Source: a virus. Taken from it: 64,000 bases of DNA. The notes below the pieces were generated by a model. That model saw nothing but the letters and a program-made list of their open reading frames with translations. It searched no databases and had not been told where the DNA came from. The stretch spans positions 23,060 to 87,059 of the IMG/VR virus record IMGVR_UViG_3300009081_000001; one strand, given 5' to 3'. Position 1 is the first letter of the stretch, and each line of letters begins with the position of its first letter. Shown one piece after another: positions 1 to 64,000 of the stretch. The translations under genes and the position numbers were made by a program.

Positions 1-1194
1 ACACCGCCAGGGGTCGAGTACCATCTTTGCTTTCGATGCACTCAAGTCCGTCCACTCTGGCAGCATGACCACAAGGACTGTAGCCTGGCCCAACACTTCC
101 TCATAGGTATGGCTGCATGGGGCCAGCTTATCATAGGTGATGGCACCTGTTATCTCTGCCAGCCTTTGCCCCTGTGATTCCTCTGTGACCGGCGTTCCAA
201 CCTTATACGCCAGTCCCAGGATACCTACCGTGTCCCTTGGCGTACACCACTTCTCTACCGTGTGCAGTAAGCGCATGAGTACGTCCCGATTCGTGCGGGT
301 AGTGGCATGAACCAGATAGGGCCAGTCCTCACTTCCAAGGGCAGAGATAAGAGCCCGTCCATCCCTCGGAAAGCATGGCCCCCCGTAGCCCACCCCCGAC
401 TTGAGATACTTCTTGCCAATGCGTGAGTCATGGCCGATGGCTTGTAGGATGGTATCGCTATTAGCACCTGGCACGATACCCGCAAGCTCCCCTACCATGT
501 TAGCATAGCTGATCTTCATGGTAACGTAGCAGTTCAGTGACAGCTTGGCAATCTCGGCGTTGACAAAGCTCATGCGGCGGATAGGTGGGGGAATGTACAC
601 TCGGGGGTTGTCGTCAATGTAGAAGCCTCCGTAGACTGCATGATAGAACATCTCCAGCATCTCCCCTGCCCTATCGTCACTCTCTCCAATGAGGATAAAG
701 TCAGGGTTCTCCATATCTCTCAGCACGGAGCCAAGGGCAACAAACTCTGGAGAGTAGCAGAGGCCGAAGTCAGAGCCACACTTCTTCTTGCTCAACCTCT
801 CCATCAGGTCTGCTATCTGCTGCGTATGCCCTGGCATGACCGTAGAGACGATGACTACAAGGTGATAGGCGTCCTTGTCTCTAAGAGCAATGGCGATGTT
901 CTCACAGGCGGCTCGAACGTAGTCCAGGGAGAACGCCCCGCTGTCATCCGATGGCGTAGGGACAAGGATAAAGGTGATCTCCGATTCCTTGACCGCTTTC
1001 TGTAGGTTCGTGGTCATGTGAAAGGGGTACTGTGCTACAAGCTCATTCACACCGGGCTCTGCTACATTTCCGTCGGAAATAGCCTTGATAGCTTGTGGAT
1101 TTACGTCAACTCCGATGACACTATGGCCCTTGCTCGATATCCAGGCTGCAAGCGCAGCGCCGAGCTTCCCTAGTCCAACTACGGATACATTCAC
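1..1194 (-). CDS. UDP-glucose/GDP-mannose dehydrogenase family protein (runs off the left edge)
   Basis: Not in the ORF track; my translation from GTG at 1194 gives MNVSVVGLGKLG (Rossmann), FILVPTP, VSTVMPG, CYSPEF, AEIAKLSLN, catalytic GYGGPCFPRD and LGLAYK. Confidence 0.9.
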   Translation of the reverse strand, partial: MNVSVVGLGKLGAALAAWISSKGHSVIGVDVNPQAIKAISDGNVAEPGVNELVAQYPFHMTTNLQKAVKESEITFILVPTPSDDSGAFSLDYVRAACENIAIALRDKDAYHLVVIVSTVMPGHTQQIADLMERLSKKKCGSDFGLCYSPEFVALGSVLRDMENPDFILIGESDDRAGEMLEMFYHAVYGGFYIDDNPRVYIPPPIRRMSFVNAEIAKLSLNCYVTMKISYANMVGELAGIVPGANSDTILQAIGHDSRIGKKYLKSGVGYGGPCFPRDGRALISALGSEDWPYLVHATTRTNRDVLMRLLHTVEKWCTPRDTVGILGLAYKVGTPVTEESQGQRLAEITGAITYDKLAPCSHTYEEVLGQATVLVVMLPEWTDLSASKAKMVLDPWRC

Positions 1195-1424
1195 TTGTTC
1201 CTCCTGCAAACTAGCCCGGCCATTCGATTGCCCTCAGTCATCCATATGTTTTGCGTACAGGTGAAGCCGGGCGGCACGGTGATCGCAATGCTGAACTCTG
1301 TTAGCTCCCTGGTATCCTGCTGTCTCAGCCAACGGTTGCCACAAATGCCACCCACGACGATGGCGATAACAAGCACAGCGGTCACACAGACGATGATGGC
1401 TACTTTTACTTCATTCCCCTTCAT
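1191..1424 (-). CDS. Small membrane protein
   Basis: N-terminal hydrophobic helix; stop overlaps the GTG of the next gene. Confidence 0.6.
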   Translation of the reverse strand: MKGNEVKVAIIVCVTAVLVIAIVVGGICGNRWLRQQDTRELTEFSIAITVPPGFTCTQNIWMTEGNRMAGLVCRRNK

Positions 1425-15005: not shown

Positions 15006-16646
15006 ATGGACAAGGCAACACTGTACGCCCTGGATAACAACTGGACCATCGATATGCTGAACGCCATGAACGGCGACCTGTTTGCCAGCCTGGGTATCAA
15101 CCCCTGGTATCCAGAAGACTGGGCAGAGAACCCGGTCAACCATATCCTCAAGAATGACAACCTTTGGGAGCGCCTGTCTAGTATGGAGGGTGTGTCTGGT
15201 GTGTCCCTGGTTCGTGCCCAAGTCATCTGCCAGCAGCTTATGTGGAACTTTGGGCGGTTCGGTAAGGGACCAGAAGGGGATGGACTGCCCAAGACGCTGC
15301 GCAAGCTGTGGTATGCGGGGCACAAGGAAGCCCTGCAGTACATTAGCAAGCTGCTTGACGTGTGGCGGAACAAAGAGAGCGGGCAGATGAATGACGTGAG
15401 TGCCAATGCCTGCATGTCCACCGTCTACGGTGAGTTTGTGGATACCCGCCTTGTCACCTACCTGGATATGTTCGTCAAGGATGGGAGCCGCCAGTTTGAA
15501 GTGTTCTCCGTCTACAACCGCTTGCCCAACCCTCTCTCTAATATCGTCTTCTGCATCGAGAAGGATGCGGCCTATGAGGACTGCGTGAGGATTGCCAAGG
15601 CGTTAGGGGCAGCTTGTGCCCTCTCCGGTGGTGGTAAGATGGGCAAGGCTGGCACCGAGAACATGGTACGCCAAGCCCTATCCAGTTGGTACAAGACCGA
15701 GACGCCCGGTGATCTGGTTACGGAAGAGAATCCCTGCTATGTCCTGGTGATCAGCGATTGGGACTATGATGGGGAGAGCGTTATTGCCCCTACCTTTGTC
15801 GAGCAGATGCGCCGGTACATTCCCGACGACAAGATGAACTGGTGCCGCGTCGGTATCAAGCCTGAACAGGTAGAAAGACTAGGCCACGACCTGTTGAGCA
15901 AGGCATATCAGGTGAAGTACCACGTCAACAGCGCCTATACCCGGTGGTGCCAGGCCAACGCCATCTTTGACATCAGCGGCGAGGCATACCAGGGAGAAGA
16001 GGAGTTTGACCGGGTTGTGGACCAGGCCAAGTATCTCTCCCCTACACTGGGCTATGCTCTACGGGACAACGGCCATGTGCTCAAGCACGATACCCTCAAG
16101 ACCATCTTTGAGCTGTGCCCGCCCCTTGGCTATGAGCTGGATGCCCTCAAGCGTGTTGAGTACGCCGAGCTGATTGTTGAGGGCTTGCTGACCATGATTT
16201 CCTGGGATGACCTGATTGATGCCCTCTCTCGCAAGGCATGGAGCAATCCAAGCGAAGTGACCGAGAGCTTGGTTCAGGCCGTGCTTGCAGACAACGAGGA
16301 CTATCAATCCCTGGACCAGCACATTACCGAGCTACGGGCACAGTTTGAGGCGCTGATTGCAGACCTGGAAGGGAAGAAGGGAGACTTTGAGAGCACAGTA
16401 CGCGCCGAGATCGAGCCCCTGGTGAATATCTGGAAGGACGATGAGCGCATTGCAGAGAAGGATCCGGTGCCCTCACAAGACGCTATGGCTGCTCATCTAC
16501 GCCAAGTGAGCGCCTGGGACCACTGGCAACCATTCAATCACTGGGACCGCAACGGTGCCCACGGTGAAGTGGTCGAAGATGAAGAGGAAGAGACGCTAAC
16601 CGACCTGCGAAACCGGCCTCTCTACTTTGACCGGGTGACGTTCTAG
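15006..16646 (+). CDS. Topoisomerase VI-A/Spo11-like Toprim domain protein
   Basis: TLRKLWY, FCIEKDA, ISDWDYDG (Toprim DxD), RVGIKPEQV, YELDAL, then coiled coil. Confidence 0.7.
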   Translation: MDKATLYALDNNWTIDMLNAMNGDLFASLGINPWYPEDWAENPVNHILKNDNLWERLSSMEGVSGVSLVRAQVICQQLMWNFGRFGKGPEGDGLPKTLRKLWYAGHKEALQYISKLLDVWRNKESGQMNDVSANACMSTVYGEFVDTRLVTYLDMFVKDGSRQFEVFSVYNRLPNPLSNIVFCIEKDAAYEDCVRIAKALGAACALSGGGKMGKAGTENMVRQALSSWYKTETPGDLVTEENPCYVLVISDWDYDGESVIAPTFVEQMRRYIPDDKMNWCRVGIKPEQVERLGHDLLSKAYQVKYHVNSAYTRWCQANAIFDISGEAYQGEEEFDRVVDQAKYLSPTLGYALRDNGHVLKHDTLKTIFELCPPLGYELDALKRVEYAELIVEGLLTMISWDDLIDALSRKAWSNPSEVTESLVQAVLADNEDYQSLDQHITELRAQFEALIADLEGKKGDFESTVRAEIEPLVNIWKDDERIAEKDPVPSQDAMAAHLRQVSAWDHWQPFNHWDRNGAHGEVVEDEEEETLTDLRNRPLYFDRVTF

Positions 16647-36759: not shown

Positions 36760-38178
36760 ATGAGAGCGGGAATCATGGCGAGGGTGAGCACCGAGGAGCA
36801 GCTTGCGGGCTATTCTATCGGCGCTCAGGTAGATGCAATGCTCAAGTTCTGCGAGGAACAGGGCTGGCAGGTCATGGAAAGGTACATCGAAGAGGGTGTA
36901 TCTGGCACAACGTCTAACCGGCCCGAGCTACAGAGAGCTTTGCGCGATGCAGAAGCGGGGAAACTAGATGTGCTGCTTACCCACCAGCTTGACCGCTTTT
37001 ACCGAAACCTGCGCCTACAGATCGAGACGCTTGGTAAGCTAGGAGAGATGGGAGTTGGGTATCTATCTATCACCGAGAGGATTGACTACTCAACTCCCAC
37101 CGGTATGCTATTCATGCAGATGTTGGGCGCGTTCAACGAGTACTATTCCAGCAATCTGGCACGCGAGGTTAGGAAGGGCAAGCAGGGTAGAGCAGAGAGT
37201 GGTTTGACCAATGCAACGTTCTTGCCCCACGGTTACAAGAGGGTAGAGAAGGAAGCCGTCATAGAACCAGTAAGGGCAGAGACAATCCATTACATCTTCA
37301 AGCTATATGCAACAGGGCTTTACTCCTATCGGGCAATTGCAGATAGGCTCAATGCAGAAGGACACCCCGCAAGCAGTAGGAGTAAGGGAAAGTGGATCTG
37401 GCAAGCAGTGAGGGGTATCATTGAGAATCCCTACTACATCGGTCTTATCAGGCACAACGAAAAGATGTATCAGGGCAAGCACGAACCTATCATCGAGCGC
37501 AAGTTGTGGGATATGGCGCAACGAGTGAGGGAACAACGTGCAACATCGTACACTCATTCGAGGACAAAGGAAACTTTCATCTTGCGCGGCACCGGCCACT
37601 GTCTTGCCTGTGGTAGTAGGCTGTATGCAGAGAGTCATGGGAAGAATAGGTACTACCGTTGCAGTGGAAACCAAAAGGGGGTAAGTTGCACAGTTCCATT
37701 TGCAAGGGTGGAAAAGGTAGATGCAAGTTTGGCAGAGCTTGTATCTCACGCGCAACTACCAGGAAACTGGCGTGAAGAGATTGCAAGAGCTATGCAAGGG
37801 CCAGTTTCCAACGATGGCAACAAGCGCAAGTACTTGCAAGAGAAGTTGCGCCGGTTGCGTGAGCTGTACCTTGAGGATGACTTTACCAAGGAGGAGTACA
37901 ATCAAAGGAAACGTGAATTGGAAAGTGAGATTGCAAGGCTACAACCACCAGGGAAACCAGACGACATTGACGCCGAGTTGATTGCAAACCTGAGTAAACT
38001 GTGGGAGGGAGCTGAGTTGCAGCAACGCACCGACCTTGCAAACATCCTCTTTCGTAGTGTAGAGGTAGATATGCAAGAGGAAAGGGTAGTTTCCTTTGAG
38101 TCGTACCCCGAACATGCAATGTTGTTCCGGCTTATCTTTGAGGAAAGGGAAGGGAAGTTCTACAATGGACAGGCATAA
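36760..38178 (+). CDS. Large serine recombinase (integrase)
   Basis: ARVSTEEQ catalytic Ser, SG...RPEL, LDRFYRN, recombinase domain, CLACG..YYRC..C zinc ribbon, coiled coil. Confidence 0.95.
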   Translation: MRAGIMARVSTEEQLAGYSIGAQVDAMLKFCEEQGWQVMERYIEEGVSGTTSNRPELQRALRDAEAGKLDVLLTHQLDRFYRNLRLQIETLGKLGEMGVGYLSITERIDYSTPTGMLFMQMLGAFNEYYSSNLAREVRKGKQGRAESGLTNATFLPHGYKRVEKEAVIEPVRAETIHYIFKLYATGLYSYRAIADRLNAEGHPASSRSKGKWIWQAVRGIIENPYYIGLIRHNEKMYQGKHEPIIERKLWDMAQRVREQRATSYTHSRTKETFILRGTGHCLACGSRLYAESHGKNRYYRCSGNQKGVSCTVPFARVEKVDASLAELVSHAQLPGNWREEIARAMQGPVSNDGNKRKYLQEKLRRLRELYLEDDFTKEEYNQRKRELESEIARLQPPGKPDDIDAELIANLSKLWEGAELQQRTDLANILFRSVEVDMQEERVVSFESYPEHAMLFRLIFEEREGKFYNGQA

Positions 38179-55489: not shown

Positions 55490-55908
55490 TTTTCCAACAG
55501 CCTCAACACCTGGACACGGTTGTTGCCTACCGGGTCATACTCTACTCGCGGATCCCAGTCGCTCACGTTTTCCGCATTCCAGAAAGCAGAGTCTTCAAAG
55601 GACTTGGCCTTGAGGTCTGTAGACTCCATCGCACTCTTTAGGTGAGCGTCTGTGCCATAGGTGTACGTCACTTCGTTGTAGACTATGGTTCCACTGGCGT
55701 CGTGGTCGAGCCAGATGCGTCCGGCAAACTCCCTCTTGTTGGCCGGTGCCCTCACCACAAGCAGAGTGCCAGCCGGGTTACGCGAGATGTCCTTGATGTA
55801 GGATAGACGCCCGCCCTCGTAGCCCTCAAGCAGCGTCACAAAGGCATACTTGTTGGCGTCACTGGCCCAGGTCAAGAGTAGATACGCTCGTGCAAACTTG
55901 TCGCTCAT
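55486..55908 (-). CDS. Distal-tail-position protein
   Basis: 140 aa directly after the tape-measure-position gene (ATGA overlap). Confidence 0.5.
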   Translation of the reverse strand: MSDKFARAYLLLTWASDANKYAFVTLLEGYEGGRLSYIKDISRNPAGTLLVVRAPANKREFAGRIWLDHDASGTIVYNEVTYTYGTDAHLKSAMESTDLKAKSFEDSAFWNAENVSDWDPRVEYDPVGNNRVQVLRLLEK

Positions 55909-58900
55909 TTCCAGGGCACCCCCCAACTACCCGCCTGTTTCCGTCGGAAATCGGCACTCTCCTGCACCGTCTCAATGTGTGCATCAAAGGTTTTGCCATC
56001 GTCCAGCACCAGTTTCATAGAGGCACCCTGCAATCCTGCAAAAAGGGCAGCAGCAAGGTCGTTGCTCGATGCTTGCTTGTTGGGATACGGAGCATTGTAC
56101 CCAGGTATCTCGGGCGGTGTCTCGCTCCAGGTCTGCTCATCTGCCGCCGTTGGCCCACTCCCCAACTTGGCTAGTATCTCGTCAATGAATGCCATCACTC
56201 GGTCATAGAGATCGCCACCCGCTGAGTACTGCTTGATCTGCCACGCCATGTACTTGGCGTGTGCATCCTCGATACCCTCTTGCAGCTTCATGCCCTTCTC
56301 TTGCAGGGCCAGGCCCTCAAGCTGAAAGTCGTGCTGCTTCTGCTGGTAGGGGAATACCACTTCTTCGTAGTACTTCTTCTGCCTCTGCAACTCTTCCAAC
56401 TGGTACTGCTGCTGCCTATCTTCCCATGCCTCTTGCAGCTTGCGCCTCTCATCCTCAAGCGCCCATATAGCAGTGTAGTCTTTCTTCCTCTGCTCGATCT
56501 GCTCCTTCTCCAGAGCATACCGCTCCAGAATGTGGCGCTCCTGCATCCTAAACTGCATCTCTTGTAGCTGAGTAGTGCGCTCGAAATGCTCTTTCTGCAA
56601 GCTAAACTTCTGGCGCTCCCACTCCATGACTTGCTTGGCGCGTTCCTCTTCTACGCCCCGCCTGTCCTCGGTGCGAGAGTACATCTCTTCCTGGTACTCC
56701 CTGCGGCGGAGTAGGCCCTGCTTCTCCCTGCCAGTGGATAGCCTGATAGAACGCTCCAGCTCGTCTTGCTGGTACTCGTGCTGGAACCCGGCCATCTGGC
56801 GGTTGTAGGCCATATCCTGCATCTGCCAGCCCTGCTGAGTCTCCATCTGGCCGAACTGGACACCCATCTGAACGCGCTGAAACTGTATGCCTTCCTGCCA
56901 GGTACGCCGGGACATACCCAGGTTCTCAAGGCTCTGCCGGGTAGACAGCTCAAGCCCGCGCTCTTGGAACTCGATACCCTTCATAGTCTGCTGGCGCTGT
57001 AGGTCGGTCATCTGATGGGTGATAGCCCTAATGGCCTTGGTGAACTCCATCAGGTCTTGTTGGATCTGGATCTGGCCTGTCATGCCAAAGCCCCATCCAA
57101 CAGAGGATTGACCGCCCCACTCCCCGGTGCCCATCTGAAACTGGTTTTGTGTCTGCTGGTATTCCCAGGATGCTTGTGTCTGCCGTCGGGATAGGCCAAG
57201 CTGCTGCCTGTTCAGAGCCCTGCGTTCCATCTGCCCATAAGAGTAGCCGTACTGGTCCATGAGTGCCGGGCCAGTAGGTGCCCCTGGTCCCTCTTCGTAG
57301 GCATTGAACAGCGCAGAGAGGCCAGAGCCAAGGCCGTATCCACCGGCCATCATGTTGTACCCTTGCTGGCTCATGCCAAACTGGGTAAGGCTCTGCATCT
57401 TCATGTACTGCTCTGCGGATAGCTGTGCAGAACCATAAACGGGCTGGTCATAGACCGGCATACCAGGCAAGCCCCCCACGTCACCCGGCGTTGCGGGCCT
57501 GGCGCTAAAGCCTGCCGTTGACGGCTCCAACATCTTGGCAAAGGCAGAAGAGAATCCAGCCGGTACACCCAAGGTCTGCCCGATCCCGCCAAGGCCCATC
57601 CGTTCCCTGGCAGCAAGGTTGAGCTGTGTGGTAGAGACTCCCGAGCCTAGCCAATCCGCATACTGCTCGACCATGCCAAGCCCCGGCGTGATACCCGCTT
57701 GCCCACCCGCGCTACCTAGCAACTGTGCAGCCATCATCCACTGCGCCTGCTCTGCTGGCTGTGCCTGTGTAGGCAACTCTGTAAGGAATGGCTGGATACC
57801 CTTCCCTGGTGCGATACCTAGATAGCCCGCAAACCTCTCAATCGAACTGGTATAGGCCCCCGCCTGTCCCAGTTGGGCCATAGGTGCAAGACGGTTGATA
57901 GCTTGCTGCGCTTGCCCGCCGCTGATCTGCTCCGGTGTATAGCCACCAAGAGACAAGAGCACCCCTAGCTCTCTGGCCTGTGCCGGGTCAAGGTTCAGCT
58001 TGTCCAGGTTCTCTAGGGTGATAGATGCCGTGTCGATCTGGAATTGTGCCGACTGCTTGTAGGCTGCAAGCCCTGCCTGGACCTCTTTACCGTAGCCCCC
58101 CTTCTCCTGATCCCCGGTGATAAGAGCCTCTACACCACCCTCGCTGAACAACTGCCTGAACCCATAGCCAACCCTGGACCACAGAGACGGCTTCTCCCTC
58201 TCGCCTGCCTGAATCTCTGCGTACTCCCTTTGTAGAGAGGGTAAGTCGCTGGCTGCATAGGACTGCCCGGCCATAGCGCCTGTTGCCACCAGTCCACCCA
58301 CACCAAGAGCCAGGGGGGCCGCTGCTGCCGTTACCGTTGCTCCAAAGCCCACGCCACCTGCCGTTAGAAGACTACCCGCCGTTGTCGCGGCGATACCCGT
58401 AGTTAGTCCAGCACCAAGCCCTGAGAGCAAGGGACCACCTACGCCACCAAGCGCCTGCCCCATCTGGAATGTAGGCTCAACCCCCATCATCCCCAGGAAT
58501 CCTGCCCTCTGCTGCAGGGCAGATGTACCAAGCCCCATCTGGAAAGAGCGTTGCGCGGCCTGGTACTGCATCATCTGCCCCATGCTGCCCTGCATCACGT
58601 CCTCATAGGACTGACCATAGGCAAGGCCGAACTGCATCCCGGCCATCTCGTAGGGCTCTGCCGCCTGTTCCCAACCCCCTACCACTCCCTTGGTGTAGCG
58701 GCTAACAACAGCCATCCTGATAGCAGCGCCACCGATGGAGAACTCTGATAGGAAGTCACCCATCAGGCCCCTGGCAGCACGGCCCCGGCCACCAGTAGCC
58801 GCCCCTCCCGCTGCTTGCAACTCAAGCTCTGTTCTCGCTTGTTGTGTATCTATGGCACCCAAGCGCCCCAGGATGCCACCACCTTCTCCCATTGCCATCG

Positions 58901-61900
58901 CGGGTTGAGCCATCCCCGCAATCTTCGTGAGTGCCGCAAGCTGCTGCTGTTGGGGCTTGTCCAACGGCCCCGCTTTCCCTGCTGCCTCTAGTCCCTCAAG
59001 CGTTCCCCTATGCCCACGTAACACTCCCCGCGCCCAGGTTCGTGCCTCTTGTGCGGTTGGCTCTAGTGCCTCCACTATCCCCTTGAGTGCAGGAGCAAAC
59101 CTCTTGGCATACTCCTGTAGTTGTGGGTCATCGGCAAGTATCCTGATAGCTTTGTGTGCCCTGGTGAGGTCGTCACCCATAAGGCGCACACCCTCCGACA
59201 ACTGTTGGGTAAGGTTCCCTATGTCCTGTCCTGCTGCCCCAGGCAATCCTTCTGCCATACGGCGGCTCGTTGCCGGTCCAATACCCCGCATGGCTTCAAG
59301 CTGTCGAACGTCGGTGATCTGCTTGCCATACAGACCTTCCATGTTCCTCTTGGTCACGGCTCGGTAGGCTGTCTTTGGTCCCACCCCCTGGATAGTCTGC
59401 AATGATTCCTCTGTCGCCATCTCATTGAACCACTGCATAGCACCTGGCCCTACCTCGGGGAATGGGGTGATCGCTGCCTCAAATACAGTACTAGTATCAC
59501 GCAGCCGCATGGCCTGATATGCTGGCTGCAATCCCTGCATCAGCATTTCCTCGGCCTCTGCCATCTGTGGCGCAAAGAAACTAGACTTGTCCTCGTAGTT
59601 AAGCAAGGTGCCCATACGTTTGGTGACTTGGCTCAGTCGCCTCATGGCTGCACCCTGTTGCTTAGTGAGGGCACCCCGCCCACCAACGATCTCTTTCTGG
59701 TTCGCAAGAAAGACATTGGCCTCTTGCATTAACAGGCCAAGCTCCTCGGAATGCCTCTGTCGAAAGACGGGACGCTTGAACTGCGTAGCCTGCGTGATAT
59801 GCTGCGTGATATTCTGAATTTGCTGTACTGGCTGTTGGCTAGGCGCACGTCCACCAGAGGGTGGTACTGGCGGTGCTGCTGTCGTAACCGGCGGAGAGGG
59901 CGGCTTGCGTCCACCGGGCGGCGTAGACGTTGGCGGTGCCATACCAGCACCCGGAACATCTGATGTGCCACCGCCTGGATGAGCCCGCCGATAACGATCT
60001 ATGGTGTCTTTTAGGGCTGGTTCCTCTTCATCGGACGAAGCGATGAATGAGGCCAGCGCCGTTTCATATTCTTCCTTTGTAGGAGTACCGCGATTTCCGA
60101 CGGAAACAGGAGACAAGACCTGTTGGGTTTGTAGTCGCTCGGGCAAGTCCCAAGGTAGTTCGCGTCCAGATGCGCGAACGGACTCCACCCACTCCTCGAT
60201 GTCGCCACCCTTTGCCATCATGCGAATGGCGGCATCTTGTTGCTCTCGCCCACCAAGAAGATGCTCTGCTACCTCACGCGGAACACCCTTTTCCTGAAAC
60301 GACTGCCATACATCTATCCCTGCTTCTTCCGCACTCTTCTTAACACTTTTGGCCCACTGCCCGCCATAGAAGGTTCCCCAACTGGATTCCTGTGCGAATG
60401 CCTGCGCTGCATCTGCCGGGTTGCCGCCGTAAGCCTTGATAAGCTCTCGGAACACCATCGGCGCGGCACTTAACCCACCCTTCTTTGCTCGGGCAAGGGC
60501 AGAGATAATCTGCTTCCTCTTCCCAAGGGGAGCTAGGCCAGCCGCTGCCTCTGGCGCAGTCATTCGGGCCTGTCCCTTCGGCACACTCACAAGGCCCGCT
60601 GCCACCTGTGTAGCAGCCCACATGACGCCCGGTAGGTTCCTTATGGTTGTGGGACGACCATAGGGATCTTCGCCTTGCTTGGCATACATGCGGTGTGTGC
60701 CCCCCTTGGCCGTGATGGTTGCCAGATCCAGTGCTGCTAATACCTGTTCTGGTGGTGCCCCTGGTCGCTGTGCGGGACCATAGGCCAACTGCAATAGCTT
60801 CTCTGCCGATGCTACCGCTGCCGGGTCTGGTGCCGTTGCCGCCATACGTTGGGGAATGTTGTACACTCGCCCGATGTTGCCCACGTTCTCGGCGCGTTCC
60901 TTTGTCTTAGCAAGCATCTCCTCATCTGAAACAACACGACCAACAGCACCCCTCTTGACCATCTCAATAGCTTCTTGTCGAGAGGGTGATGGTGCTCCTA
61001 CGCCTACATACTCATCCATGATGTTGGCAGCGCCCTGCTCGACGGCCCGCCGCGAAAGAGCCTTGATGGTTCCAGCAGATAACTCTTTGCCACTGGCATC
61101 GAAGTACTTACCATCAATCTTGATTGCCTGGCCTGTCTTCAAGTACCAGTCAATGTCACCGTCGGCGTCGCCCTGGCTTGCCTGCTGGATCTGCGGGCTA
61201 ACAGTTAGGCGCTCCACGTTCATCTTGCGGGCAAGGCCCTCTTCCATGCCGATGTTCACGACTTGCGCCCCAGGATCGTAGCTTGCCTTACCCATCGTAG
61301 GATAGCGAACCACTTGCCCAGTCTCGCCCTCGGGAGAACGTGGATTCAGAACTTCATTTGGGGCAAGGGCCTCGCTAACTGCAACCTTCGCTCCTGTCAC
61401 ATATTCTCTACCTGGCTCAGTACCCATCGCCCGCCGTGTCCACTTCTTACTCTCGGCAAGCTGCCTTTGTATATCTCTCGCGGCGACGATCTGCTCTTTG
61501 GGTATCTCTTCCCCACTCATAACCCGCTGCGCCAATCCGAAGATAGCGGTGTGGTACTTCGATACCTCTTCTCCTTGCTCCGCGCCCGTTGCTGACGTGT
61601 ATTTCAGGGATTCACCCGGCGGTATGATTAACTGCTCTCCCCCACCCTCAAACATGATGGGGGTCTTGCTTAACTCTTCCCCTTGGGCCATGAGCGTTTT
61701 AAGCTGTGCAACAGAGGCACCACCCGCCGCTTGTTGCAACAACTCATTGTAGGGCATCCCATACCCAAGCCGTTCCATGAACTGTCGTGCTACCATGCGC
61801 TGAGGGATAGCCTCGGTCACACCCGCTCCGGTCATCAAGCGCACCGCTGACTCCGCTTCTGCAAGTAGGGGCAGCATTCGCCCACCCAACTCGGAACCAC

Positions 61901-63821
61901 GCAATACCTGTTGGGGTATGGCATACTTACCAGTTGAGTACAGAGCAGCGTTGATAACGTTCTGGTGTGCTCGCTGCCTGCCTGCCCCCGCCCTTCTGTA
62001 ACGCTCTGCTACCTCGGGTTGCATGGCCTGTAGGCTCTGCATCTCACCATAGCTTAGTCTTCCCCGCGTTGGATGGGGCTCCCACATAAAGGACACACCC
62101 GCCGTACCCCGCAATACCTGATACTGCGCCGTGATGTCCCGCATGTAGGGCATCCCCTCTACCTCTCGGGGATTGCCCACCATGACGCCCTGGTAAAGAG
62201 GCAGTTGAGCCTCATGTACTCGGCGCTGCCAGTACATGGTGTCTACCATCTGCTCTGCCCTGGCCCTGAACCGCTCCAATACTGGTCTTGCCAGTTCGCT
62301 GTAGCTTTCTGGCAGCTTACTCACCCCAAGCTCTGCGAGAAGTTCCCTTTGCCTTTCGGGACTGGCCTGACCAAACTCTCCCTTAAAGAACGTATAGGCT
62401 GTTCCTAGCCAGTCCTTTTGTGTAGCGATGTATTGCGGTGGTTCTGCGCCACTGGCAAAAGTGACAGTCTCTGCCAGATTAGTAGCCAGGGCCTGCCCCT
62501 TGTATGCCTCTTTCAGACCGACCGATACCTCAGATATAGGAGCCGTTCGTTCAAGGACAACACGCGCCCCCTCTCCCTTCTCTGGATGCGCGATTGGCCT
62601 TACGTCACGAACTCTATGCCCCCAGTGAGGACTTTGGATAGGCTCAAGGCCGGGACCAAGCTGTACGGGCTGGCCCACTCCCCACTGTTGTCCAACCTTG
62701 ACGGGCTCTGCCCCCTCACCAAACACATTGACGACTTTACGCAAGCCCTCGACTGGCCCAAGGGATTCTTCGATAAAGTGCTGACCTGATGCGCTGACTT
62801 CGCCGCCTAGTACCACGGCCATTCTTACCGGCTGGTAAGTCTGTGTACTGACAGTGCCACCATGAAGAGGCCCGGCGGGCAGCGGATCTCTAACTACCGG
62901 CAAGCCCTGCACGATTAGTTGTTCGTGCTTTCCTAGCTGTTGGAGTCGCTTGGCCTCGCTACCCGGCTTGGCAGTGGTGACATAGCCACCCTCTGTCTTA
63001 CCAAGGTACGTTGCATCCAGCACACCAACTGGGTATGCGTGTTTCCCCTTGCCCTCATAAAGATGTCCCTCTGGCGGGATAGGACCATAGTCGCCCTGCT
63101 CCCAGTCGTCAATGTGGGCACCCAGTAAGTGTTTCTGTCGCTGAAACTCTGGTGTCCGTACCCATTGAGACATAGGCATAGCAGAACGGCCCGCCCTGCG
63201 TTCTTTAGCTTCATGCCCCAACCAACCAGGAGCATAGAACTCTGCCAGTTGCCTCTTTGATTGAGCAAGAGTAGCGCCGGGAAGAGAGGGGAAGTCCTTG
63301 CGGATCTCCTCTGCTGTATGCCCAGTATTCAGGCCCCAGGTTAGAAACTGCTCGTAGTCCGAACCTACGCCACTAGACTGTGCCGATTGCTGAACAGGCA
63401 TGGGCCTTGGGCCTGTGATACGCTGTGGAGATGCGGGCTGTGGGGGCAACTGTGCGGGTGCTTGCCTGCCACTTGACAGAGCGGCCCGCGCCTCTCCCTG
63501 CTGCATGTGAATGACATCGGTAGCACTGTAGCCCAGGCCGTAGAGCCTGTTCATCTCCGTCGCGTTTAACTTCGCCTCTCCACTGGACCGGCGCTCGTCT
63601 CTGTAGGATATGCCCTCTTGGGAGAGGAATGAGATAAGCGCCTCTGGATCGGGAGTCTCGAACCGCTTGATACGCTCGTACTCTGATGTTTGGGTAGGGT
63701 CGTCGGCAAGCGGTTGCTCACTCTTGACGTGAACAACGGTGCTAGTGCCGCCGGGCTGGATGGTAATGTCTACGATCCTCTGTCTTTGTTGCCGTAGATA
63801 CCGCAGTATGTCCGTCGCCAT
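55905..63821 (-). CDS. Giant tape-measure-position virion protein with a putative two-barrel RNA polymerase domain
   Basis: C-terminal half G/A-rich and Q/E/R coiled coil; N-terminal half has VGLKEAYKG (~aa 435-442), GQVVRYPT and QGDADGD (~aa 883-889). Confidence 0.7.
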   Translation of the reverse strand: MATDILRYLRQQRQRIVDITIQPGGTSTVVHVKSEQPLADDPTQTSEYERIKRFETPDPEALISFLSQEGISYRDERRSSGEAKLNATEMNRLYGLGYSATDVIHMQQGEARAALSSGRQAPAQLPPQPASPQRITGPRPMPVQQSAQSSGVGSDYEQFLTWGLNTGHTAEEIRKDFPSLPGATLAQSKRQLAEFYAPGWLGHEAKERRAGRSAMPMSQWVRTPEFQRQKHLLGAHIDDWEQGDYGPIPPEGHLYEGKGKHAYPVGVLDATYLGKTEGGYVTTAKPGSEAKRLQQLGKHEQLIVQGLPVVRDPLPAGPLHGGTVSTQTYQPVRMAVVLGGEVSASGQHFIEESLGPVEGLRKVVNVFGEGAEPVKVGQQWGVGQPVQLGPGLEPIQSPHWGHRVRDVRPIAHPEKGEGARVVLERTAPISEVSVGLKEAYKGQALATNLAETVTFASGAEPPQYIATQKDWLGTAYTFFKGEFGQASPERQRELLAELGVSKLPESYSELARPVLERFRARAEQMVDTMYWQRRVHEAQLPLYQGVMVGNPREVEGMPYMRDITAQYQVLRGTAGVSFMWEPHPTRGRLSYGEMQSLQAMQPEVAERYRRAGAGRQRAHQNVINAALYSTGKYAIPQQVLRGSELGGRMLPLLAEAESAVRLMTGAGVTEAIPQRMVARQFMERLGYGMPYNELLQQAAGGASVAQLKTLMAQGEELSKTPIMFEGGGEQLIIPPGESLKYTSATGAEQGEEVSKYHTAIFGLAQRVMSGEEIPKEQIVAARDIQRQLAESKKWTRRAMGTEPGREYVTGAKVAVSEALAPNEVLNPRSPEGETGQVVRYPTMGKASYDPGAQVVNIGMEEGLARKMNVERLTVSPQIQQASQGDADGDIDWYLKTGQAIKIDGKYFDASGKELSAGTIKALSRRAVEQGAANIMDEYVGVGAPSPSRQEAIEMVKRGAVGRVVSDEEMLAKTKERAENVGNIGRVYNIPQRMAATAPDPAAVASAEKLLQLAYGPAQRPGAPPEQVLAALDLATITAKGGTHRMYAKQGEDPYGRPTTIRNLPGVMWAATQVAAGLVSVPKGQARMTAPEAAAGLAPLGKRKQIISALARAKKGGLSAAPMVFRELIKAYGGNPADAAQAFAQESSWGTFYGGQWAKSVKKSAEEAGIDVWQSFQEKGVPREVAEHLLGGREQQDAAIRMMAKGGDIEEWVESVRASGRELPWDLPERLQTQQVLSPVSVGNRGTPTKEEYETALASFIASSDEEEPALKDTIDRYRRAHPGGGTSDVPGAGMAPPTSTPPGGRKPPSPPVTTAAPPVPPSGGRAPSQQPVQQIQNITQHITQATQFKRPVFRQRHSEELGLLMQEANVFLANQKEIVGGRGALTKQQGAAMRRLSQVTKRMGTLLNYEDKSSFFAPQMAEAEEMLMQGLQPAYQAMRLRDTSTVFEAAITPFPEVGPGAMQWFNEMATEESLQTIQGVGPKTAYRAVTKRNMEGLYGKQITDVRQLEAMRGIGPATSRRMAEGLPGAAGQDIGNLTQQLSEGVRLMGDDLTRAHKAIRILADDPQLQEYAKRFAPALKGIVEALEPTAQEARTWARGVLRGHRGTLEGLEAAGKAGPLDKPQQQQLAALTKIAGMAQPAMAMGEGGGILGRLGAIDTQQARTELELQAAGGAATGGRGRAARGLMGDFLSEFSIGGAAIRMAVVSRYTKGVVGGWEQAAEPYEMAGMQFGLAYGQSYEDVMQGSMGQMMQYQAAQRSFQMGLGTSALQQRAGFLGMMGVEPTFQMGQALGGVGGPLLSGLGAGLTTGIAATTAGSLLTAGGVGFGATVTAAAAPLALGVGGLVATGAMAGQSYAASDLPSLQREYAEIQAGEREKPSLWSRVGYGFRQLFSEGGVEALITGDQEKGGYGKEVQAGLAAYKQSAQFQIDTASITLENLDKLNLDPAQARELGVLLSLGGYTPEQISGGQAQQAINRLAPMAQLGQAGAYTSSIERFAGYLGIAPGKGIQPFLTELPTQAQPAEQAQWMMAAQLLGSAGGQAGITPGLGMVEQYADWLGSGVSTTQLNLAARERMGLGGIGQTLGVPAGFSSAFAKMLEPSTAGFSARPATPGDVGGLPGMPVYDQPVYGSAQLSAEQYMKMQSLTQFGMSQQGYNMMAGGYGLGSGLSALFNAYEEGPGAPTGPALMDQYGYSYGQMERRALNRQQLGLSRRQTQASWEYQQTQNQFQMGTGEWGGQSSVGWGFGMTGQIQIQQDLMEFTKAIRAITHQMTDLQRQQTMKGIEFQERGLELSTRQSLENLGMSRRTWQEGIQFQRVQMGVQFGQMETQQGWQMQDMAYNRQMAGFQHEYQQDELERSIRLSTGREKQGLLRRREYQEEMYSRTEDRRGVEEERAKQVMEWERQKFSLQKEHFERTTQLQEMQFRMQERHILERYALEKEQIEQRKKDYTAIWALEDERRKLQEAWEDRQQQYQLEELQRQKKYYEEVVFPYQQKQHDFQLEGLALQEKGMKLQEGIEDAHAKYMAWQIKQYSAGGDLYDRVMAFIDEILAKLGSGPTAADEQTWSETPPEIPGYNAPYPNKQASSNDLAAALFAGLQGASMKLVLDDGKTFDAHIETVQESADFRRKQAGSWGVPWK

Positions 63822-64000
63822 TAGCCCATCTTCTCCCTATACACCATACCGGCCAGGTCTACCATCTCCCAGGTCCAGTCAGGCTGATCGTACAATCCAC
63901 CCTCTGCCAGAAGATGACCGGGCCACCGTTGCAGCTCAAACCACAAAGAAAGGTAAGGGGGCGGGACCGGGCGCTTCATCTTCTCTATGTTCACACCCTG
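63821..64000 (-). CDS. C-terminal part of a tail-assembly-chaperone-position protein
   Basis: My translation ...LAEGGLYDQPDWTWEMVDLAGMVYREKMG*; TAATG overlap with the next gene. Confidence 0.5.
   Translation of the reverse strand, partial: QGVNIEKMKRPVPPPYLSLWFELQRWPGHLLAEGGLYDQPDWTWEMVDLAGMVYREKMG

Follow-up and report, generated by a model that had tools for sequence, protein, structure and literature searches.

A giant tape-measure-position protein with a predicted single-chain two-barrel RNA polymerase in an uncultured phage

We analyzed a 64,000-nucleotide stretch of viral DNA (IMG/VR record IMGVR_UViG_3300009081_000001), here called the window, which corresponds to bases 23060 to 87059 of a source record of 87,059 bp. 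The record carries a 103-bp direct terminal repeat, is rated complete, and represents an uncultured, metagenome-derived phage of 87 kb. Our subject is a giant open reading frame (ORF) on the minus strand at 55905-63821, which encodes 2,638 amino acids (aa), starts with ATG, has no internal stops, and is a real gene. An earlier note, made from the sequence alone, had proposed that this gene fuses a two-barrel RNA polymerase to a tape measure; the ORF, the motifs that the note quoted, and the Pro-rich linker that it described between the two halves were all recovered at the positions given here. The features of the gene and its immediate upstream neighbor, in window coordinates, are as follows.

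55905-63821 (-): whole gene, a 2,638-aa tape-measure-position protein without cysteine
63222-63821 (-): N-terminal leader of ~200 aa, poorly conserved; conservation begins near aa 200-220
60252-63182 (-): predicted two-barrel RNA polymerase module, aa ~214-1190, the conserved and confidently modeled part
62082-62621 (-): predicted beta-like double-psi beta-barrel (DPBB-B), aa ~401-580; chains of second-largest subunits align to model residues 1-390/550
62499-62501 and 62412-62417 (-): lysines of DPBB-B, namely invariant K441 and invariant K469-D470, respectively, with K437 close by
61425-62051 (-): helical connector between the barrels, in the clamp position, aa ~591-799; predicted local distance difference test score (pLDDT) mostly 84-95
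61056-61415 (-): predicted barrel DPBB-A, double-psi and beta-prime-like, aa ~803-922; matched at model residues 604-723 by chains of largest subunits and by DPBB proteins that stand alone
61299-61307 (-): RYP, aa 839-841, the [RK]xP element 43 residues ahead of the Asp triad, with an invariant P841
61155-61169 (-): DADGD, aa 885-889, the loop predicted to be catalytic and to bind Mg
60762-60773 (-): AQRP, aa 1017-1020, nearly invariant, downstream of DPBB-A
59829-59969 (-): Pro-rich linker, aa ~1285-1331
59247-59420 (-): putative helix-hairpin-helix (HhH) module, aa 1468-1525, a sub-threshold Pfam match (23 versus 27 bits)
58266-58361 (-): Gly/Ala-rich hydrophobic, membrane-like segment, aa ~1821-1852
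56226-57083 (-): pair of very long helices predicted at aa 2247-2361 and aa 2364-2532, which include the family-conserved GWQMQD...R...G...R region
63824-64000 (-): 3' part of a -1-frame chaperone extension ("T"), whose TAA stop overlaps the ATG of the giant gene (TAATG); the rest lies at genome positions 1-220

The sequence ARVVLERTAPISEVSVGLKEAYKGQA occupies aa 418-443 (62493-62570) and GQVVRYPT occupies aa 835-842 (61296-61319), while DADGD is the sole DxDxD motif in the entire protein. The filter [RK]xPx{20,100}DxDxD, used by Chaban et al. for two-barrel polymerases, is thereby satisfied. An exhaustive HMMER search with aa 250-1300 against 1.84 billion representative sequences retrieved 32 homolog clusters, with E values down to 7e-64, ~30% identity, and lengths mostly of 2,000 to 3,200 aa. 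Ten homolog clusters were looked up, and all were metagenomic singletons or near-singletons, none with a name. For conservation counts, the homologous parts were aligned and the counts were then repeated with a separate alignment tool. D885, D887, and D889 were invariant across all 26 aligned homologs, in a Q..GDxDGD context, as was P841 in 27 of 27. K441 and K469 never varied (23/23) and K437 was kept in 20 of the same 23; all three are placed in loops of the beta-like barrel. Invariance also extended to K291-R292 (22/22), and Q1018-R1019-P1020 of the AQRP motif was kept in 25 of 26 homologs. The conservation of DxDGD and of two lysines, which the earlier note had named as a check on its proposal, is thus borne out. 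The motifs are not chance occurrences, because they are invariant in homolog clusters at ~30% identity, and the pattern of conservation at this low overall identity reads as an active-site signature.

Around this predicted core, single family members carry additional domains, including an RNase T/DnaQ-type exonuclease, a sigma-70 region-4-like helix-turn-helix, or HhH domains. The relative from contig L010 (L010:11905-19974) has a ComEA-like HhH within the connector that separates the two barrels.

An AlphaFold2 model of aa 200-1270, built from a 26-row alignment, had a mean pLDDT of 81.9 and a predicted template modeling score (pTM) of 0.79. When this model was compared with the PDB by Foldseek, the best 50 matches were all RNA polymerase large subunits, comprising second-largest subunits (vaccinia Rpo132, RNA polymerases [Pol] I, II, and III, African swine fever virus, and archaeal enzymes) and the Thermus beta-prime subunit. 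We also used VIA-align (VIA), an all-against-all comparison with 48,161 representative chains that was run without Foldseek. Its matches included QDE-1 (Z 11.2 over 436 residues), P74-26 gp62 (Z 10.2, 336 residues aligned, root mean square deviation 4.1), Pol I chain B (Z 9.7), maize RDR2 (Z 9.3), vaccinia Rpo132 (Z 9.0), and P23-45 gp96 (Z 8.9, 289 residues aligned, model residues 23-884 versus chain residues 327-1088), and Rpb2 was among the best structural matches, with Z 12.3. A repeat of the structure search gave 193 chains with Z of at least 8, and among the matches listed these were RNA polymerases throughout.

Individual parts of the model were matched separately by VIA. Largest-subunit chains matched model residues 591-1000 (Z 7.0-7.6), stand-alone double-psi barrels (Cdc48-N and designed DPBB proteins) matched residues 604-723, and beta-flap structures matched residues 159-227. 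The secondary structure of the model places the Asp triad in a loop just ahead of a strand of DPBB-A. A single chain therefore appears, in the model, to hold a beta-like barrel, a helical connector of ~210 residues, and a beta-prime-like barrel in that order. No T7-like (N4-type) polymerase was among the matches listed in the three structure searches, all of which were two-barrel enzymes. On the strength of this model, the N-terminal half is predicted to have the fold of a single-chain two-barrel RNA polymerase, as the earlier note had proposed; the double-psi barrel fold, on which that proposal had been made to depend, was found in a confident model and by three structure searches.

The database of predicted viral structures, BFVD, gave as its best match an uncharacterized protein of Microcystis phage MaMV-DC, A0A075BUT7 (E 1.3e-10, template modeling scores 0.39/0.48, 994 columns), followed by giant-virus and poxvirus polymerases and then by a "minor tail protein" of an uncultured siphophage. 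Judging from its predicted structure, A0A075BUT7 may be another unrecognized two-barrel polymerase of a phage. Searches of other kinds gave the following results. A Pfam scan of the whole protein returned nothing beyond the sub-threshold HhH match, PHROGs gave no match, tblastn against 50,697 phage records gave no match, a word-indexed homolog search with aa 250-1300 recovered the query alone, and the ESM Atlas gave no usable match.

The C-terminal half, which the earlier note had described as tape measure-like, has Gly/Gln/Met-rich stretches beside the hydrophobic Gly/Ala-rich segment. Its position, composition, and predicted all-helical structure agree with that description, and Pfam and PHROGs supplied no family match for it. 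An AlphaFold2 model of this half is helical almost throughout, with an overall pLDDT of 56; its helices include two, 115 and 169 residues long, that are modeled at pLDDT 80-89. A fold search with this low-confidence model found generic coiled coils only (chemoreceptor, SMC, and Rad50), which is uninformative on function. By the rule derived from lambda gpH, a tape measure spans 1.5 Å per residue, and on this rule aa 1340-2638 would span ~195 nm. All long homologs conserve a region of the C-terminal part in which certain Asp, Arg, and Gly residues are invariant, and for this reason the fusion of the two halves is considered stable; the polymerase half and the conserved C-terminal region occurred together in 19 of the 19 long homologs aligned.

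The protein is also unusual in its composition. Not one of its 2,638 residues is cysteine, versus 1.56% in the genome's other ORFs of at least 150 aa (P about 1e-18). Nearly all of the homologs of 2,000 to 3,200 aa are likewise free of cysteine, and so are the proteins of L008 and L010. The absence of cysteine might reflect selection on a protein that is stored extended, expelled, and refolded past an oxidizing compartment.

On the same strand as the giant gene, the upstream order is portal (SPP1_portal, 6e-6), a capsid-protein match (L003:4443-5507 (-), spanning part of the PHROG profile only), adaptor (SU10_adaptor, 1.8e-11), group-1 glycosyltransferase, a 342-aa gene, a 183-aa gene, and the giant gene. 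The record starts upstream of the giant gene, with the window ending within the small ORF there. The 342-aa protein has 37 homologs assigned to Phage_tube_2, both by precomputed Pfam annotation and by our own scan; one of its relatives, P0037 (82% identical), scored 30.5 bits against a cut-off of 27. As this is a tube gene, the phage is a long-tailed one, and no sheath gene was recognized among its genes.

Directly ahead of the giant gene, the 183-aa ORF is trailed by an open -1 frame that starts 28 nucleotides ahead of the ORF stop and runs into the TAATG overlap. The earlier note was right to place the giant gene between a chaperone-position gene and distal tail genes, with the proviso that the small ORF upstream reaches into the window with only its final 59 codons (63824-64000), the remainder wrapping to the start of the record. 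We read the gene contexts of relatives at loci found with the tube protein. In all four genomes with enough sequence (this one, L006, L008, and L010), the order is tube, G, -1-frame ORF, and giant gene, and the tube proteins of the three relatives are 56-82% identical to the 342-aa protein. The -1-frame extension appears to be translated, because its peptide is conserved among the related contigs. A candidate slippery heptamer of canonical form, A_AAC_CCC, is peculiar to this genome, where it lies at codon 177 of 183, and GGGGGAAG, ahead of the stop of the 183-aa ORF, is common to the three sequences examined (this genome, L008, and L010). The 183-aa ORF and its -1 extension are thus recognizable from sequence as a G/GT-type chaperone pair with a predicted frameshift. 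It is established that such a G/GT arrangement of tail-assembly chaperones, reportedly described by Xu et al. 2004, precedes the tape-measure gene in long-tailed phages. Downstream of the giant gene lie genes for proteins of 146, 1111, 201 (weak H-type lectin match), 193, and 1381 aa (weak carbohydrate-binding match), and no other candidate for a ruler gene was seen among them.

The earlier note had called a fusion of this sort unusual. It is less so in view of an experimentally proven precedent, gp96 of Thermus phage P23-45, a tape measure of 5,002 aa that has a two-barrel polymerase, with DFDGD as residues 779-783, in its N-terminal ~1,200 residues (Chaban et al. 2024, PMC10770324). The gp96 polymerase is active in vitro, full-length gp96 is found in virions, and five minutes after infection gp96 is bound to the 9-kb pre-early region (PMC10770324). 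Transcription coupled to DNA entry via a tape-measure pore has been proposed for gp96, as has its passage through the tube on the grounds that it is flat and clampless (PMC10770324). Phages with proteins of the gp96 type are Thermus P23-45, P74-26, G20c, and TSP4 (PDB 8h2m and 8h2n).

The resemblance of the giant protein to gp96 takes in several levels of organization. In both, the polymerase lies N-terminal to the tape-measure-position part in one polypeptide, DPBB-B comes before DPBB-A, and RxP stands ~40 residues ahead of DxDGD, which has a similar place in the two chains (779-783 in gp96, 885-889 here). Both have hydrophobic segments in the C-terminal part, and neither has a single cysteine. 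The gene order is also alike, with genes of ~345 and ~170 aa followed by the giant gene and then by tail-tip genes, among them a lectin-like one, and the downstream series here resembles P23-45 gp97-gp100. There are differences as well. The giant protein is about half as long as gp96 (2,638 versus 5,002 aa); the connector of ~210 residues is helical and confidently folded here, whereas that of gp96 comprises 67 disordered residues (613-679); an HhH module follows the linker here, and no metallopeptidase match is found; and the genome here encodes a large serine recombinase. BLASTP gave no match between the 342-aa protein and P23-45 gp94, and gp96 was not recovered in a PDB profile search with the giant protein family. 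Activity and virion presence have been shown for gp96, whereas the giant protein is known from sequence and models alone.

We consider it likely, with a probability of about 0.72, that the giant protein is the tape measure of a long-tailed, probably noncontractile phage in which aa ~200-1190 form a single-chain two-barrel RNA polymerase, and that it would be built into the tail, ejected, and engaged in transcribing early genes. This reading is directly supported by the fold, the conserved catalytic signature, the constant fusion, the place of the gene in the tape-measure slot, and the lack of cysteine in the protein. By analogy with gp96, the phage probably injects its own transcription enzyme.

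A possible course of events is as follows. The Pro-rich linker would join the polymerase to the HhH module, the hydrophobic Gly/Ala-rich segments, and the long helical C-terminal part, the last of which would be housed in the tail tube. On the model of P23-45 gp96, tail assembly would incorporate the entire protein and infection would eject it, and the C-terminal part might then make or line a channel across the envelope. The polymerase, lying nearest the head and beside the leading end of the DNA, would transcribe the first-entering genes independently of host RNA polymerase, and the host enzyme might take over later at sigma70-type promoters. Catalytic activity, presence in the virion, ejection, and the choice of target genes are in this account presumed from the likeness to gp96.

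Several points weigh against this reading. Searches of the PDB by sequence and by family profile gave low-complexity and coiled-coil noise and no known polymerase. When the module was aligned with gp96 by hhalign, the probability was 0.2% over its full length and 1.9% for DPBB-A by itself, even though RxP and DxDGD are paired in the alignment. The RxP element pointed out by the earlier note is upheld in its proline, but its arginine is present in most family members and not in all. For the C-terminal half, no tape-measure family of Pfam or PHROGs matched the giant protein or 19 homologs, and a search for shorter relatives found three unnamed fragments and no named tape-measure homolog; the proposed ruler role draws on gene order, composition, and the helical model of pLDDT 56. 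Lastly, a folded core of ~1,000 residues with a structured connector of ~210 residues would be hard to fit into the lumen of a tail tube.

The difficulties with the ruler role could be avoided if the polymerase were real and the protein that carries it were an ejected or internal protein in the tape-measure slot, with a helical C-terminal part that serves as a membrane channel or anchor, much as in crAss-like and N4-like podophages, whose giant proteins carry polymerases. We regard this as improbable. It would explain why no tape-measure family matches the protein or its homologs, it would suit an adaptor family named after podophage SU10, and the low confidence of the C-terminal model leaves room for it. 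However, the tube gene and the G/GT-type pair with a conserved -1 extension stand directly upstream in four genomes, which is a hallmark of long-tailed phages, and the genes downstream offer no other ruler. A podophage ejection protein, which the SU10-type adaptor had brought to mind, was dropped as a candidate given the tube and the G/GT pair.

Structural comparison with other polymerases bears on a further possibility, which is that the two-barrel module is active in a tape measure but has another job, such as replication priming, a transcription-driven motor that pulls DNA, or RNA-dependent RNA synthesis like that of QDE-1. The best whole-module match is indeed QDE-1 (Z 11.2-11.4 over 344-436 residues), and plant RDR2 is also among the best structural matches. 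QDE-1, RDR2, and gp66 of phi14:2 (a phage of the crAss-like kind) are all single-chain two-barrel enzymes with DbDGD-type loops. QDE-1 and RDR2 differ from the present module in being eukaryotic and acting in RNA silencing. The gp66 polymerase is, as the module here would be, part of a giant virion protein, but it belongs to short-tailed phages without tube, chaperone, or ruler; it was not among the structure matches listed, which carries no weight either way. P23-45 gp64 and P74-26 gp62 (PDB 8f72 and 8f5m) surpass gp96 as structural matches, with Z 10.2 (336 of 592 residues aligned) and Z 10.1 (326 residues), and share with the module a single-chain two-barrel architecture with a clamp-type connector. 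They differ in that gp64 is a free enzyme of ~600 aa that is absent from virions, whereas the module here is fused to a tail protein, and no sequence similarity was detected between them. By these scores, the module appears structurally slightly nearer to gp62/gp64 and QDE-1 than to gp96.

In favor of such another job, one may add that the enrichment of strong sigma70-like promoters suggests that host polymerase could suffice for transcription, and that no partner phage polymerase was found: a scan of ORFs of at least 150 aa for [RK]xP...DxDxD gave no gp64-like enzyme, though a very divergent one could escape it. Against it, all characterized virion-borne phage polymerases (N4, phi14:2 gp66, phiKZ, and P23-45 gp96) transcribe early genes (PMC10770324), and crAss gp66 is QDE-1-like yet DNA-dependent. 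We therefore think a job other than early transcription improbable too, and keep to an injected early-gene polymerase within the tape measure.

Less probable still is that the module has lost its polymerase activity and survives as a relic with a structural part to play, either in DNA binding or in the assembly of the tail. The variation of the RxP arginine within the family would fit a relic, but the three Asp residues, P841, K441, and K469 are invariant at ~30% identity, and this points to selection on an active site, not on a scaffold. That the protein is no polymerase at all, and that DADGD and the lysines arose by chance in a large tail protein of low complexity, as the lack of a sequence-level match to any polymerase family might suggest, is very improbable in light of three structure searches with a confident model that give RNA polymerases only, the invariance of the motifs in the family, and the position of the Asp triad in a loop before a strand of the segment (model residues 604-723) that matches stand-alone DPBB proteins.

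The module also departs from the polymerases of cells and nucleocytoplasmic viruses (beta/Rpb2 plus beta-prime/Rpb1). Its later part fits largest subunits (Z 7.0-7.6) and it has a beta-flap-like element; however, those enzymes consist of two or more chains and ~2,500 residues, whereas here there is one chain of ~1,000. Versus cellular polymerases, the module has no Zn-binding cysteines, QGDADGD in place of NADFDGD, and no sequence-level similarity.

A fusion of this kind has thus already been published for P23-45 gp96, and the present family is, as far as sequence comparison can tell, unrelated to it; in the literature searched, we found no paper extending tape-measure-polymerase fusions beyond the P23-45 group. 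We tentatively propose, at somewhat less than even odds, that the giant protein is the founding example of a sequence-distinct, cysteine-free family of tape-measure-fused two-barrel polymerases, spread over at least ~30 unannotated metagenomic clusters from nonthermophilic, possibly temperate long-tailed phages, and marked by a folded connector in the clamp position, movable nucleic-acid modules, and no second phage polymerase.

So far, a tail ruler that is at the same time an injected RNA polymerase has been described in print from a single lineage, the P23-45-like phages of Thermus. The locus described here would represent the same solution in an unrelated protein family and in possibly temperate phages of ordinary size (87 kb), and it supports the recurrence of a coupling between DNA entry and self-transcription through the tape measure. 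If the family proposed above is real, such coupling would be a general strategy of long-tailed phages and not an oddity of Thermus phages. At 2,638 aa, the protein is also a second and smaller subject for work on the storage of a folded polymerase in a tail tube and on its passage through that tube. It draws attention to giant "hypothetical" tail proteins, a class that goes wholly unrecognized in annotation pipelines, and the absence of cysteine, common to the giant protein and gp96, may serve as a signature of ejected proteins.

Two further proteins were noted in passing. In a more distant phage whose tube protein is 36% identical, a tape-measure-position protein (L013:11705-14329 (+)) has HRWP with DFDKD ~40 residues on; BLAST aligned HRWP...DFDKD to RYP...DADGD without significance (E 0.26), and the protein may be a still more divergent fused polymerase. 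A homolog of aa ~1560-2638, P0075 (67% identical), one of the three fragments found in the search for shorter relatives, lies on a 3.6-kb contig that NCBI labels as a metagenome-assembled genome of Sphaerochaeta sp., a label that gives a weak hint of habitat or host.

Elsewhere in the genome, a large serine recombinase is encoded at window positions 36760-38178 (+), with Resolvase, Recombinase, and Zn_ribbon_recom domains, and is a sign that the phage may be temperate. In the plus-strand region there is an enrichment of sigma70-like promoters (23 versus 13.3 +/- 3.9), and host polymerase presumably does most of the transcription. Both observations agree with the earlier note, which had taken the phage to be temperate and to have host sigma70 promoters. 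A scan of representative genomes with the tube protein alignment found no prophage relative, and we therefore assign no host. A 546-aa protein (15006-16646 (+)) was considered as a second polymerase, being the sole other match to [RK]xP...DxDxD, but its DWDYDG is toprim-like (VISDWDYDGES) and it was rejected; in Pfam it has a weak HalX match.

The palindrome TTTCCGWCGGAAA occurs in 37 copies between window positions 1067 and 60106, with 0 expected in shuffles. Two of these copies, 55938-55950 and 60094-60106, fall within the giant gene. The sequence is readable as a 5-bp stem with a 3-nucleotide loop, and its central base is A on the sense strand in 24 of the 37 copies. Hairpins are the signals for the N4 virion polymerase, and by a speculative comparison the palindrome could be a signal for the polymerase of this phage; a terminator or a site for a regulator are other possible readings.

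Finally, a glycosyltransferase of 419 aa (L003:1933-3192 (-)) is encoded between the adaptor and tube genes, a place that is kept in L008 and L010, and a UDP-glucose/GDP-mannose dehydrogenase is encoded on the same strand at window positions 1-1209 (-). Together, these two predicted enzymes suggest possible glycosylation of virion proteins.

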